A DNA stretch of 64,000 nucleotides from Escherichia coli (lineage in GTDB: Bacteria > Pseudomonadota > Gammaproteobacteria > Enterobacterales > Enterobacteriaceae), in assembly GCA_025336725.1 (NCBI GenBank), contig GCA_025336725.1_3647.1, one strand, 5' to 3'. Shown piece after piece: positions 13,089 through 51,974 of the stretch; position 1 is the stretch's first letter, and each line of letters begins with the position of its first letter. The notes beneath the pieces were generated by a model that was not told the origin of the DNA, did not search any database, and saw nothing but the letters and a program-made list of their open reading frames with translations. The translations under genes and the position numbers were made by a program.

Positions 13089-13165
13089 TGGTCTCCACGG
13101 AGTGATTCGAACACTCGACCTCCTGATCCCAAATCAGGCGCTCTACCAAGCTGAGCTACGCGGAG
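13089..13165 (-). tRNA. tRNA-Pro (anticodon TGG)
   Basis: Hand-folded cloverleaf: acceptor CTCCGCG/CGTGGAG, anticodon stem CCTGA/TCAGG with loop TTTGGGA, T-loop TTCGAAT, encoded CCA. Confidence 0.65.
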
Positions 13166-13174
13166 TTTATAATT

Positions 13175-13249
13175 TGGTGGCCCTGGGTGGAATTGAACCA
13201 CCGTCTGGCGATTATGAGTCGCTTGCTTGAACCTTCCAGCTACAGGGCC
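13175..13249 (-). tRNA. tRNA-Met (anticodon CAT; could be Ile-lysidine)
   Basis: Acceptor GGCCCTG/CAGGGCC, anticodon loop CTCATAA, T-loop TTCAATT, encoded CCA. Confidence 0.6.
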
Positions 13250-13250
13250 A

Positions 13251-13326
13251 TGGTGCTGATGGCAGGACTCGAACCTGCAACCTATTGATTACAAATCAAT
13301 TGCACTACCAATTGTGCTACATCAGC
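13251..13326 (-). tRNA. tRNA-Thr (anticodon TGT)
   Basis: Acceptor GCTGATG/CATCAGC, anticodon stem ATTGA/TCAAT with loop TTTGTAA, T-arm GCAGG-TTCGAGT-CCTGC, CCA. Confidence 0.6.
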
Positions 13327-13331
13327 AAAAA

Positions 13332-13430
13332 GGTGCTAGGCGATGGAATCGAACCACCTATGTATTCAACGACTACTTCGTCTATTTTCAGGATTAAAAA
13401 TCCTCGCCCTTGCCAAAGGGCCTACCTAGC
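13332..13430 (-). tRNA. Atypical tRNA-like element (~99 nt), identity unresolved
   Basis: Good acceptor (GCTAGGT/GCCTAGC), D-arm and T-arm (GGTGG-TTCGATT-CCATC); only plausible anticodon hairpin AGGA-TTTTTAA-TCCT (TTT) plus a ~30-nt variable region with its own hairpin. Confidence 0.4.
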
Positions 13431-13528
13431 ATATTATGCGAATCATGCTGCTAGTCGGCGATGACGACTGTAACATTTGTTAATCCGGTTCTGCTTCCGG
13501 AGCTCGCTTAATTTCATGATCCACGATC

Positions 13529-13618
13529 TGGCAGAGAGTAATGGAATCGAACCATCATCGAGGATATCTCAACGGGACGGTTTTCAAGACCGCTTGAGCA
13601 CCATGCTCCCTACTCTCT
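13529..13618 (-). tRNA. tRNA-Ser (anticodon TGA), long variable arm
   Basis: Acceptor AGAGAGT/ACTCTCT, anticodon stem GCGGT/ACCGT with loop CTTGAAA, ~20-nt variable arm, T-loop TTCGATT, CCA. Confidence 0.6.
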
Positions 13619-13730
13619 TTTTATAAACAACACTGATAATGACACTGATTTTCGAACAGTTAGTGACTAGTATAAACGACGATAAACATCAATGTCATTA
13701 TCTATGTTATTTATCACAAATATGTAATTT

Positions 13731-13817
13731 TGGTGGGGAGTGATGGAGTCGAACCACCCGAGTCGCAATGACAATAGATTTACAGTCTACACCGCTACCC
13801 CTACGGTATAACTCCCC
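13731..13817 (-). tRNA. tRNA-Tyr (anticodon GTA), long variable arm
   Basis: Acceptor GGGGAGT/ACTCCCC, anticodon stem GTAGA/TCTAT with loop CTGTAAA, ~15-nt variable arm, T-loop TTCGACT, CCA. Confidence 0.6.
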
Positions 13818-13821
13818 GATT

Positions 13822-13896
13822 TGGCACCCCGTACTGGACTCGAACCAGTGTCAACGGCTTAGAAGGCCGCTGCTTTATCCACTAAGCTAACAGGGC
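13822..13896 (-). tRNA. tRNA-Arg (anticodon TCT)
   Basis: Anticodon stem GCGGC/GCCGT with loop CTTCTAA, T-loop TTCGAGT, CCA; acceptor contains G-U wobbles. Confidence 0.55.
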
Positions 13897-34231: not shown

Positions 34232-34290
34232 TCCTATCACAGCGATAGGTAACTTCTGTGTTGACTAATACTATCAGATAATCTATAATA

Positions 34291-38473: not shown

Positions 38474-38752
38474 ATGAGCTGCGAAAAATCTTTTTTCATC
38501 ATCATTTACGGTAAGGATAACTGCCCACATTGTGTAAGAGCAAAAGAATTTGCAGTCAGTAAAGGCATACCTTTCGTATACAAGACGCTAGGTGAGGGAT
38601 ACACAAAAGAAGAGCTTATCGAGAAGTGTAGCCCATTTGTTCCCAGAACGTTGCCTCAGATCTTCTTGGAAAGCAACCTTAACAGTATCCACATAGGAGG
38701 TGCTGACGATTTCATCTCTTTTGTTAAGAATGGTTTTGGAGAGAAAAAGTGA
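38474..38752 (+). CDS. Glutaredoxin (NrdH-like)
   Basis: 92 aa with CPHC redox motif near the N-terminus. Confidence 0.65.
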   Translation: MSCEKSFFIIIYGKDNCPHCVRAKEFAVSKGIPFVYKTLGEGYTKEELIEKCSPFVPRTLPQIFLESNLNSIHIGGADDFISFVKNGFGEKK

Positions 38753-41378
38753 AAGTTGTAAAACGGGACGGTAGAGAAGAGTTTTATAACGGAATCAAGG
38801 TGATCAAGGCGGCAGAGTCCGCCTTACTTGAGTCTGGGCATACTGAAGAAGAAGCTTACCGGATTGCCTGCGCGGTTAATGAAGTTGTTGCCAACAATCT
38901 GCCAACCGACCAGTGCACGATCTCTGTAAAAAATATCCATATCCTTGTTGAAGATGCTCTTATGGATATGGGTTTAAAATGTGCAGCCAGAGAATACATC
39001 CAGTATAGACAGACAAGAGATAATAACAGAGAGGCAGGTGGAAAACTGCTTGCAGATATTAGTGGCTTTTTGGATCGTACTTGTGATGAATTTACAAAAG
39101 AAAACGCAAATAAGCCTACTAATCATGTACACACTCATCGTGACCTGCTTGCAGGAATCCTTAGCAAACACCTTGCATCAACACAGATCCTGCCAGATCG
39201 TGTCTCAGAAGAGCACAACAAGGGCTTCATCCATGTGCATGATCTTGACTACTTGATCAGTCCGTTAACAAACTGTTGTTTGGTAAATTATCCGGATATG
39301 CTGGAAAACGGATTCAACATTGGTAACGCCCATGTCAGCAAGCCTAAGTCAATAGGGGTTGCAACAACAATCCTTAGCCAAATCTCTAGTGCAGTAGCTA
39401 GTGCTCAATATGGTGGTCAGACTATGAGCCATATTGATCATTATTTGGCACAGTATGCTGAAGCCACCTATGAGAAGAACCTTAAATTTTGTCAGGAGCA
39501 TTGGTTGCCGGATGCTGAAGGCGTTGCAATGCAGATGACTGATAAAGACGTGTTTGACAGTATGCAGACGTTGCTTTATCAAATCAACACGTTAACTTCT
39601 GTCAACGGTTAACAAACTGGCCGTTTTAAAACTCTGCTAACCTCAGTATGAGGGGTCAGCTGATTGCTGGCTAACGGGGAACGCTAAGGCGAAAGCTATG
39701 CCAATCCCGTGACTAGCTTCACAAGGAGTGAGGCGGTTGTAACGACTAACCTTTTGGTGTAGGGATTATGGAAGATTCCGAAACGCAGAGGTCTGATTAA
39801 GAATCACATGGTGTGATTTCAGGCAAGAGATAGTCTGGCCTTGTGGAAACATAAGGGTGGGGACCGCAAACCCCTTTTATCACATTAAGTTTAGGACTTG
39901 ATACCTCGGTCTTTGGTAGAATGATTACCAAAAACTATTTGAAAGTTCACAAAATGGGTCTTGGTGAAGAACGGATCACACCTGTGTTCCCTAAAGTATT
40001 GTTCTTCCTAGAAGAGGGTGTCAACATGAGCCCTGAGGATCCTAACTATGATTTGAAACGATTAGCTCTGGAATGCTCTGCAGAGCGGATTTATCCTGAC
40101 TTTGTTTCTGTTCCGCTAAATCGTAAGGTGACAGGTTCTACAGATGGCAAAGTAACGAGCATGGGTAAACTATAACTGCTCATGTAAAATCTATCTAAAC
40201 GGGGAAACTCCAGAACGGACAATCCCGTGCTAAATGTTCTTTTGAACTAAATGCCTAACGACTAACCGTGATGAATGTAGCGGTGTAGGGTGTAAGCCGA
40301 TGACACTCGAAATGGTAGACACACTAAGTGTGAAGATATAGTCTGATCTGCATGGGAACATGCAGCAGCACTTAAAGGTGCGGGGGTGGACTTGCGAACC
40401 ACCCTGAACATAATGTGTAGAAGTTTCTTATCGAAATATAGCGACCCTGTAACAGGCGAGGAGAAATACCTTGGCAGATTTAACTTAGGTGTTGTTAGCC
40501 TTAACCTACCAATGATTGCGGCAAAAGCTAAGACGGAAGGTGTTGATTTCTTTACCGTTCTAGACGAATATCTGGATTTGGCATATGAAGCTCACCTTGT
40601 AAGGGTTAACCGTCTGAAAGGCACTAAGGCAGGTCAGAACCCCATCATGTGGTGTGAAGGCGCTCTTGCTCGCTTGGATCCTGAAGAGAGTATTGATAAA
40701 CTCTTCTATGACGGGTACGCTTCCATCAGTATTGGGTATATTGGTGTGTATGAAACCTGTCAGATTTTGGGTAGAGAGGGAGACAAGGCTTTAGCTCTTG
40801 GAATCCTTCAGCACATGAAAGATGCTTGTGAGCGATATAAGAAGGAAAGTGGTCTGGCATTCAGCTTGTACGGCACTCCTTCTGAAAGCTTGTGCTACAA
40901 AGCTGCAACCTGTCTGGATCGTGAATATCCTGAGGTATTGAAGCACGAGCATGAATATATCACCAACAGTTTCCACCAACCAGTATGGATCAATAGTTCA
41001 CCTTTTGATAAGTGGAAGTATGAAGAAGGTTTTGCTATGATCTCCTCTGGCGGCAACATTGGATACATAGAGACACCTAACCTGAAAAACAACCTGGATG
41101 CTTTAGAGGCTCTTGTTGACTTCGGGTATAAACACATTATGTATTTTGGTATTAACCAGCCAGTGGATAAATGTCTTAAGTGTGGATTCTCTGGTGAGTT
41201 CAGTGCAACAGCTAAAGGGTTCTGCTGCCCTGCGTGCGGATGCCACGATGAACAATATATCTCAGTGATCCGAAGAGTGTCTGGCTATCTCTCCAGCCCG
41301 AACAGTAGGCCGTATAACACAGGTAAACAAGCAGAGGTTATCGAGCGAGTTAAGCACTACGGAAGTTGTGGCTGCTGA
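38749..41378 (+). CDS. nrdD: Anaerobic ribonucleotide reductase, three exons
   Basis: Exon1 38749..39609, exon2 ~39867..40166 (GPQTPF...DTS...GRMIT...PEDPNYDL), exon3 40416..41378 (CRSFL, RVSGYL glycyl-radical motif, CxxC...CxxC). Confidence 0.7.
39610..39866 (+). mobile_element. Group I intron 1 in nrdD (ORF-less, ~257 nt)
   Basis: Exon ends in T, intron begins with TAA stop and ends in G; contains AAGAGATAGTCTGG resembling the group I core; exon reading frame restored after removal. Confidence 0.5.
40167..40415 (+). mobile_element. Group I intron 2 in nrdD (ORF-less, ~249 nt)
   Basis: 5' exon ends ATGGGT, intron ends in G before TGT AGA (CRSFL); contains AAGATATAGTC, the conserved group I core element. 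Confidence 0.6.
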
Positions 41379-50900: not shown

Positions 50901-51213
50901 AACAGTGAGGTACTAACATGATGGATTTAGTTCTGGACACTGATAACACCGGAGAGTTTAAAAAGGATGGTGTAACAAGCGTTGACCAATCCTTCTCTGC
51001 CAAGATTGACTCAAAATGGACCTACAAGTTTGATGGAGATCTCCGCAAATGACTAAGGAAGGTTGTAGATGCTGCAGCCATTTTGAACGCTCTGGATACG
51101 ACCCTGTGAATCCTTTGATCAAGGATCCTGTTGAGTTTGCAGAGTATGTTCGAAAAATGGCAGATCTTGCTGTAGATATTTTAGACACTATCGACAACAA
51201 GCTATAAAAACTG

Positions 51214-51242
51214 TTGACACAACGCTTCAGATTTAGTATCAT
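51214..51242 (+). promoter_or_regulatory. Sigma70-type promoter upstream of hpf-like gene
   Basis: TTGACA - 17 nt - TATCAT, then hairpin AGAGGG-tttggtt-CCCTCT. Confidence 0.45.
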
Positions 51243-51289
51243 TGTTTTCAAAGAGGGTTTGGTTCCCTCTTCTTTAAAAGGAACACGTT

Positions 51290-51607
51290 ATGCAAATTGA
51301 AATCACTGGCAACGTAGAAATCACTGAAGGTATGGTGTCTTTCATTTCCCACAAAATGTCTAAGCTGGAGCGTTTGCACCCCTCTGCCAACTATGCACGT
51401 GTGAGTGTAAAAGTTGAAAATGATCACCAGGAAGTTATGGCGTTCATTTTTGACACTTTCGGAAAAGAAGTTATTGCCAAAGCTAAAGGCAGTGATGCTT
51501 ACGAGGCAACTGACCGTATGGTAGATGTTGCAGCACGTCAGCTGGCTAAATGTGGTGGAAAGAAAGGTAAGGGGAAAGGCAAAGTAAAGATTGACTTTGG
51601 AGAATGA
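51290..51607 (+). CDS. hpf: Ribosome hibernation promoting factor-like protein (HPF/RaiA family)
   Basis: MQIEITGNVEITEGM...KLERL...VKVEN...AKGSDAYEATDRMVDVAARQLAK parallels E. coli HPF as I recall it. Confidence 0.65.
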   Translation: MQIEITGNVEITEGMVSFISHKMSKLERLHPSANYARVSVKVENDHQEVMAFIFDTFGKEVIAKAKGSDAYEATDRMVDVAARQLAKCGGKKGKGKGKVKIDFGE

Positions 51608-51743
51608 GGTGCTACAATGGATGTGATTAAGAAATTAGTCCCAAGTGTAGAGATTGCATGCTTTGAAATTATGTTTGCAATCGCAGTTGTAGTTAATGTG
51701 TTAGGTTACGGCTATTAATATCAAATATTGAGGAGACCTCTAA

Positions 51744-51974
51744 ATGAAAATTAAATTATTCAAAACTGAGCTGGCAGACAAAAACTGTGGACTGGTCGAA
51801 GGCATGATCGTTGAAGCACAACCAGTTGACTACATGAAGGTGGTTCGTGATGCCCTGGGTGAAGGTTTTGATCTGATGGAGCCAGCTCTGCGAGAAGATG
51901 TTATCGAGATGGCTAAAAAGCACACACCGGAAGGTTTGGTAGTGTTTGTTGCTCCGGTAATGGAGAGGAGTTGA
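51744..51974 (+). CDS. Small hypothetical protein (MKIKLF-type)
   Basis: 76-aa track ORF. Confidence 0.35.
   Translation: MKIKLFKTELADKNCGLVEGMIVEAQPVDYMKVVRDALGEGFDLMEPALREDVIEMAKKHTPEGLVVFVAPVMERS

Follow-up and report, generated by a model that had tools for sequence, protein, structure and literature searches.

In the 64,000-nt stretch of DNA analysed here (the window), we describe a phage gene whose 105-aa product belongs to the HPF/YfiA (S30AE) family of ribosome hibernation factors, an assignment that we regard as secure. The protein is a divergent short-HPF-type factor of rV5-like coliphages (Vequintavirus); it retains the most conserved ribosome-contact residues of the family, has lost several others, and ends in a phage-specific Gly-Lys tail. 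The gene is already known, from an annotation of 2008 and a study of 2019, and the idea that its product competes with host factors has also been published. New here are the lost contacts, the phage-specific tail, the strong selection acting on the gene, and a sister lineage at 63% protein identity. As to function, we lean tentatively, at close to even chances, towards a YfiA-like occupation and protection of vacant host ribosomes.

Family assignment and predicted structure

The gene is a 105-codon open reading frame with an ATG start at window positions 51290..51607 (+), and its product reads MQIEITGNVEITEGMVSFISHKMSKLERLHPSANYARVSVKVENDHQEVMAFIFDTFGKEVIAKAKGSDAYEATDRMVDVAARQLAKCGGKKGKGKGKVKIDFGE. 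An initial annotation of the window, made from the letters alone, had proposed a phage-encoded HPF/RaiA-like protein of 105 aa, and both the reading frame and every HPF motif that it quoted are found at this location. A profile search with Pfam Ribosomal_S30AE, which it had put forward as a check, returned PF02482 at 45.9 bits (gathering score 23.7) over residues 3-88, corresponding to profile positions 1-83 of 88. This was the sole Pfam match, making the product a single-domain protein. The HPF/YfiA family model TIGR00741 also matched (44.7 bits against a cutoff of 40.9), and the best sequence matches among solved structures were to E. coli HPF (2rql, 4v8h and 6h4n; E ~2e-11, residues 1-89). 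Membership of the HPF family is therefore backed by Pfam and TIGRFAM profiles, by similarity to solved structures, and by the predicted fold described below.

Within the family, the two halves of the label ‘HPF/RaiA-like’ fared differently. The HPF-like part stands, with 41% identity to E. coli HPF (E 9e-17, residues 1-91), whereas the RaiA-like part does not, with 24% identity to YfiA/RaiA (E 8e-6) and only 17.6 bits to the NCBIfam RaiA equivalog model NF007654 (cutoff 158). The HPF equivalog model NF007780 scored 53.9 bits, also below its cutoff of 125. Judged by these sequence comparisons, the window protein is a divergent short-HPF-type factor and the equivalog of neither E. coli protein; the RefSeq product name ‘RaiA’ for the phage gene is a generic label. 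The Pfam search gave no match to the dimerisation domain PF16321, and the protein stops at residue 105. It thus lacks the C-terminal PF16321 of long HPFs of the Firmicutes/Thermus type, a domain that the long HPFs recovered in our homologue search do carry.

An AlphaFold2 model built from a 42-sequence alignment (mean pLDDT 81) shows the canonical beta-alpha-beta-beta-beta-alpha topology of the family, with strands at residues 2-7, 33-43, 46-55 and 60-67 and helices at 13-29 and 70-89. Confidence is high across the core (pLDDT 77-93) and falls below 50 for residues 91-105, which are predicted to be disordered. A Foldseek search against the PDB returned 37 significant matches, all of them HPF, YfiA, protein Y or other S30AE-type (RafH/MPY) factors, led by V. 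cholerae HPF 4hei (TM 0.82/0.93, rmsd 1.0 A); weak matches to dsRBD-type proteins ranked beneath these. The coding sequence can accordingly be divided into two parts:

51290..51556, + strand: HPF/S30AE core domain, residues 1-89, beta-alpha-beta-beta-beta-alpha (Pfam, structure matches and model)
51557..51607, + strand: phage-specific C-terminal tail, residues 90-105 (GKKGKGKGKVKIDFGE), with the stop codon (disorder prediction and alignment)

The closest characterized counterpart is E. coli short HPF (YhbH; 2rql, 4v8h, 6h4n), which likewise consists of a single S30AE domain with the same topology. E. coli YfiA/RaiA (protein Y; 4v8i, 1n3g) has the same fold and, like the phage protein, a C-terminal extension past helix alpha2; in YfiA this extension has been linked to 70S rather than 100S hibernation (bioRxiv 10.1101/2025.10.07.680626). 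Other phages carry S30AE proteins as well. Those of jumbo coliphages and Cronobacter phages (GAP32 K4F6Q6 and PBECO4 L7TII8) share the fold (Foldseek TM 0.72-0.77) and were also listed as phage HPFs by Mizuno et al. (PMC6375957), but they are only 20-24% identical to the window protein and are missed by tblastn at E<1e-3. They fall in PHROG 8990, while the window protein falls in PHROG 12469, and this low identity and separate grouping imply that the two kinds of phage acquired their genes independently.

Phage context, selection and transcription

The genomic surroundings bear out the proposal that the gene is phage-encoded. The 3 kb around it are 94-95% identical to >110 Vequintavirus (rV5-like) coliphage genomes, and 118 phage records contain the gene itself (90-99% identity at the protein level), under the labels ‘sigma 54 modulation factor’, ‘RaiA’, ‘hpf’ and ‘ribosome hibernation factor’. 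Its orthologue in phage rV5 is ORF144/gp139 (ABI79209, YP_002003641), which is identical at 103 of 105 residues (98%) and shares its genomic position, promoter P144 and leader with the window gene. The two substitutions, N56T and S57F, both lie in the beta3-beta4 loop, and S57F is seen in the window only, among the 21 loci compared. The rV5 record (NC_011041) notes a similarity of ORF144 to the Klebsiella sigma-54 modulation protein P17161. We also observed that 18 GenBank records for ‘Campylobacter phages’ (MG0656xx, e.g. L011 and L014; marked UNVERIFIED, host C. jejuni) are Vequintavirus genomes that carry hpf at 95-98% protein identity, and their host label looks doubtful.

Relative to rV5, the small ORFs on either side of the gene carry frameshifting indels in the window. 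Directly upstream, the homologue of rV5 ORF143 (50918..51207, +) is split by small indels into ORFs of 44 and 52 aa, while ORF143 is a single 96-aa CDS in both rV5 and ECP26; the split marks a true pseudogene or results from misassembly. Downstream, the homologue of rV5 ORF146 (51744..51974, +) encodes 76 aa as against 89 aa in rV5 and ECP26, having been shortened by the loss of one nucleotide from a G run near 51955. This downstream ORF (window 51744..) is labelled ‘sigma 54 modulation factor’ in ECP26, nimi and other phages and was considered as a possible second HPF. Its window and ECP26 versions have no Pfam match, and we therefore take the label to be annotation spill-over from hpf.

Experimental knowledge of the gene comes from Mizuno et al. 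2019 (Nat Commun; PMC6375957), whose list of HPF-encoding phages takes in rV5, FV3, JES-2013 and their relatives. After pBAD-driven expression of rV5 HPF in E. coli, its peptides were present in the crude extract, but none were detected in high-salt-washed 70S or 100S ribosomes; 100S formation was unchanged and the ribosome profile unperturbed (PMC6375957). The authors deemed this negative ribosome result inconclusive, citing growth phase, a genuine loss of binding, or dissociation during the salt wash, and suggested that viral HPF may compete with the host factor and so prevent the formation of ribosome dimers (PMC6375957). A 2020 paper gave the same annotation for five new rV5-like phages (PMC6969025). 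In our literature search we found no experimental work on phage HPFs after 2019 beyond these results and their repetition in the 2020 paper.

Sequence relatives of the protein are few. Searching 1.84 billion representative proteins with phmmer yielded only 23 matches at E<=1e-3, the nearest non-phage match being 44% identical, and a search of IMG/VR returned only 2 loci. For the comparisons we used relatives from phage records in GenBank and from contigs in Logan/ENA. Vequintavirus is the only group of cultured phages in which the lineage is found. A sister lineage, found on uncultured contigs of ~125-137 kb that are collinear with Vequintavirus at 73-76% nucleotide identity, encodes a 103-aa orthologue at the syntenic position that is 63% identical to the window protein. 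The GC content of the gene (42.8%) equals that of the phage (42.7%), which, together with the isolation of the sequence lineage, points to an old acquisition. A homologue labelled ‘Salmonella phage’, which could have dated this acquisition, proved to be a Salmonella chromosome contig carrying the host hpf (39.8% identity).

The gene is under strong purifying selection. Comparing the window with 17 other haplotypes by the Nei-Gojobori method gave dN/dS values of 0.03-0.1 in pairs with dS of 0.2-0.8, and values of 0.03-0.09 for the core domain. The reading frame is intact in 21 of 21 loci (18 distinct coding haplotypes). Within Vequintavirus the tail is also constrained: for the most diverged pair, Sd is 6 and Nd 1. 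Since selection is strong and the frame is intact throughout, we conclude that the gene is functional. This effectively refutes the notion of a non-functional passenger gene picked up from the host: no phenotype is known for the gene, as that notion would have it, but the protein persists in the sister lineage despite a divergence to 63% identity, and the gene's GC content has fully ameliorated to that of the phage. A length polymorphism was noted in the beta1-alpha1 loop within the genus, where phages slur12 and V18 (L009, L012) read TGNNVEIT at codon 9 and the window and rV5 read TGNVEIT; the extra Asn is also found in E. coli HPF.

The region around the reading frame contains the following transcription and translation signals:

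51214..51242, + strand: sigma70-type promoter, -35 TTGACA (51214-51219), 17-nt spacer, -10 TATCAT (51237-51242), 11 of 12 consensus positions
51251..51271, + strand: leader stem-loop AAGAGGG / TTTGGTT / CCCTCTT, 7-bp stem, ~-9.9 kcal/mol
51278..51282, + strand: Shine-Dalgarno-like AAGGA, 7 nt upstream of the ATG (sequence reading)
51591..51618, + strand: second promoter-like site TTGACT-16-TACAAT with an upstream TG, 10 of 12 matches

That the gene has a promoter of its own, as first annotated, agrees with a near-consensus sigma70 site that is conserved and that the rV5 record (NC_011041) annotates as ‘Sigma70-type promoter P144’. Neither its -35 hexamer nor the AAACTG upstream of it varies in any relative, the sister lineage included. 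Here the phage gene differs from that of E. coli HPF, which belongs to the rpoN operon. Sigma70 sites with at least 11 of 12 matches are abundant on the window's + strand, where 12 were found as against 1.08 +/- 0.96 in dinucleotide shuffles (~11-fold). Other strong + strand promoters lie, for example, at 34261, 42032, 43425, 47027 and 53119, several of them followed by a 5′-proximal stem-loop. The second promoter-like site lies across the 3′ end of the gene and is directed at the 33-aa ORF that comes next, and a PhagePromoter prediction falls at the same place in phage Gotham. Because the rV5 record annotates no terminator before ORF158, hpf is probably the first gene of a unit spanning ORF144-149. 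Going by promoter type, the gene is probably transcribed early and by host RNA polymerase.

The leader hairpin that the initial annotation had also reported is present and kept in Vequintavirus, though it has weak significance on a single sequence and is absent from the sister lineage. It begins ~2 nt after the predicted transcription start (~51249-51250). Taken alone, its folding energy is unexceptional (z = 0.15 for a 68-nt fold and z = -1.8 for the 41-nt leader). However, a purine/pyrimidine stem occurs at the same position in 12 of 12 Vequintavirus leader haplotypes (-5 to -12.5 kcal/mol), and some of the stem changes are compensatory, as in GGG:CCC to GAGA:TCTC, exemplified by AAGAGAGA/TCTCTCTT. 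In the sister-lineage leader the hairpin is missing and AGGGA serves as the Shine-Dalgarno sequence, while relatives within Vequintavirus keep theirs as AAGGA or GAGGA. No Rfam motif was found in the leader at gathering thresholds. A role as intrinsic terminator is a minor alternative, as the hairpin was not called by a terminator scan and has a poor U-tract (CUUUAAAA). Stem-loops at the 5′ terminus are established protectors of mRNA against RNase E-dependent decay; the hairpin is thus probably a 5′-terminal stabilizing element, and we read it as part of a general mRNA-stabilizing design of this phage's early units rather than as regulation specific to HPF.

Ribosome-contact residues and the C-terminal tail

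Lists of ribosome contacts for HPF and YfiA in E. coli numbering were taken from a preprint (bioRxiv 10.1101/2025.10.07.680626) and mapped on a 57-sequence alignment. The window protein keeps the contacts K23, K26, a basic residue at 29, E60, D69, Y71, D75, R83, K87 and K91, and eight of these (K23, K26, D69, Y71, D75, R83, K87 and K91) are shared outright with E. coli HPF. All five residues that are near-invariant in the family (K23, D69, Y71, D75 and R83) are present in both the window protein and the sister lineage. R83 touches m4C1402, and the R83/K87/K91 ladder as a whole touches m4C1402 and h44 (bioRxiv 10.1101/2025.10.07.680626).

Four contacts differ from those of E. coli HPF: the aromatic residue at position 30 is replaced by leucine (Y30L), and T53, K80 and K89 by phenylalanine, valine and glycine (T53F, K80V, K89G). 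Two of these changes fall at well-conserved places, since, of 52 cellular sequences, 45 have Y, F or H at position 30 and 47 have K or R at position 89. The sister lineage deviates at the same contact positions as the window protein. Both phage lineages also carry M70A and I74T in helix alpha2, within the otherwise near-universal DMYxAID motif.

The helix itself ends after K87 and gives way to CGGKKGKGKGKVKIDFGE, a Gly-Lys-rich stretch that is predicted to be disordered. In all, 16 residues follow alpha2, and the tail exceeds that of E. coli HPF by 10 residues. It is kept within Vequintavirus, with the number of GK units varying between phages; the sister lineage has a different but also basic tail that ends in KWDY. 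Of the cellular factors, YfiA is reported to have a tail that heads towards the RMF site, while the short tail of HPF does not clearly do so (bioRxiv 10.1101/2025.10.07.680626). The phage tail is basic (KKGKGKGKVKIDFGE) and that of YfiA acidic (…NFVEEVEEE), so any parallel drawn between them is one of length.

Possible roles on the host ribosome

There are several possible explanations for the maintenance of an HPF-type protein by these phages. The one that we favour, tentatively and with a probability just short of even, is that it would act in a YfiA-like manner. The protein would dock, as HPF and YfiA do, in the tRNA/mRNA channel of vacant 30S or 70S host ribosomes through a face formed by the beta-sheet and helix alpha2, comprising K22, K25, R28, D69, Y71, D75, R83, K87 and K91 (phage numbering). 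The Gly-Lys tail would probably extend in the direction of the RMF site, like that of YfiA. Idle 70S ribosomes would then be reversibly occupied and protected by the phage protein, as opposed to translation being potently shut off, and the protein may compete with 100S dimerization by host RMF and HPF, leaving ribosomes available for phage mRNAs. Several considerations lead us to favour YfiA-like action: the long tail should reach towards the RMF site, no RMF gene is present in the phage, expression in E. coli left 100S particles and ribosome profiles unchanged (PMC6375957), and a strong inhibitor made early would harm the phage itself. The search for a partner protein consisted of tblastn of the window with the E. 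coli proteins RMF, SRA and YqjD, and returned only chance matches (E>0.1). Given the lost contacts and the flexible Gly-Lys tail, binding to the ribosome is probably weaker or salt-labile, which could explain the negative ribosome result of 2019.

The same data also supply arguments against YfiA-like occupation. In the only direct test, no rV5 HPF was detected on purified 70S or 100S ribosomes although the protein was expressed (PMC6375957). Such a lack of ribosome association is what the initial annotation had named as counting against its own proposal, namely that a phage copy could silence or protect host ribosomes. Positions 89 and 30, which are ~90% basic and aromatic, respectively, in cellular homologues, are changed in both phage lineages. 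The protein scores far below the equivalog cutoffs for both HPF and RaiA, and the opposite charge of the two tails weakens the analogy with YfiA.

One possible, though doubtful, alternative is that the protein serves as an anti-hibernation or anti-dormancy factor, a low-affinity HPF mimic that blocks or reverses RMF/HPF-driven 100S formation. Its core would take the HPF/YfiA site while the Gly-Lys tail fills the RMF/anti-SD region, for instance once RMF levels have risen in a stringent response or under a dormancy-inducing defence. The 3′ end of 16S rRNA might thereby be shielded from RNases, permitting phage translation in stationary-phase or ‘shut-down’ hosts. Action as a classical hibernation promoter, which with host RMF would turn 70S/90S particles into inactive 100S dimers, seems unlikely to us; the outcome would be a shutdown of host translation, or persistence of the phage in starved cells until nutrients return. 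In sequence and fold the protein is indeed nearest the RMF-dependent short HPFs of gammaproteobacteria, and a phage without an RMF gene would have to rely on that of its host. Yet expression of rV5 HPF produced no discernible change in 100S particles (PMC6375957), K89 and the aromatic residue at 30 are lost, and the tail, at 10 residues beyond the length of HPF's, may clash with RMF in the way the YfiA tail does. A dimerizing factor made early would moreover sequester the very ribosomes that the phage needs.

Distinctly unlikely is a repurposing of the S30AE fold as an RNA-binding domain that has lost ribosome binding and instead targets phage mRNA leaders, phage tRNAs, host sRNAs or a protein partner. 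Such a change of function would fit the failure to detect rV5 HPF on ribosomes (PMC6375957), the loss of several conserved contacts in both phage lineages along with M70A and I74T in alpha2, the weak dsRBD-type Foldseek matches, and the isolation of the lineage, with its 23 phmmer matches and a nearest cellular relative at 44% identity. Against it, K23, D69, Y71, D75 and the R83/K87/K91 ladder are retained under purifying selection, and all significant structural matches are ribosome-bound hibernation factors. We consider it improbable that the protein is a host shut-off factor, one that binds 30S strongly through a poly-Lys tail and prevents initiation on host but not phage mRNAs. Factors of the HPF/YfiA family bind vacant rather than translating ribosomes, which speaks against shut-off, and the sequence offers no mechanism for discriminating phage from host mRNAs. 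The gene does appear to be early and has a strong promoter, and the HPF/YfiA binding site overlaps those of tRNA, mRNA and initiation factors (bioRxiv 10.1101/2025.10.07.680626), but moderate expression in E. coli left ribosome profiles unaltered and the protein was not retained on ribosomes (PMC6375957).

The rV5 HPF can be set beside other phage-captured translation genes under purifying selection, such as bS21 of a pelagiphage and bL12 of a Salmonella phage; unlike rV5 HPF, these two proteins were incorporated into E. coli ribosomes (PMC6375957). Phage copies of translation factors reveal which steps of host physiology a virus must control. If the window protein does bind ribosomes during infection, it would constitute a compact natural tool to lock, protect or wake them. 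A role of this kind would, if true, bear on phage replication in non-growing bacteria and hence on phage therapy, for which Vequintaviruses are common candidates.

Two further features of the window were noted. The anaerobic ribonucleotide reductase gene nrdD (38749..41378, +) has two interruptions relative to the uninterrupted 707-aa NrdD of rV5, with inserts at ~39610-39866 and ~40167-40415, and is recovered by tblastn as three exon pieces. Rfam identifies a group I intron at 40093-40365 (72.7 bits, gathering score 50), and a sub-threshold group I match at 39600-39856 (28.1 bits, E 5.7e-5) coincides with the first insert. Both inserts are short versions without an ORF, while the second site is occupied in other Vequintaviruses by a ~850-nt version with an annotated HNH homing endonuclease. 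The window also holds six tRNA genes at 13089..13896 (-), for Pro(tgg), Met(cat), Thr(tgt), Ser(tga), Tyr(gta) and Arg(tct), and this cluster and hpf represent two kinds of translation-related cargo in the phage.
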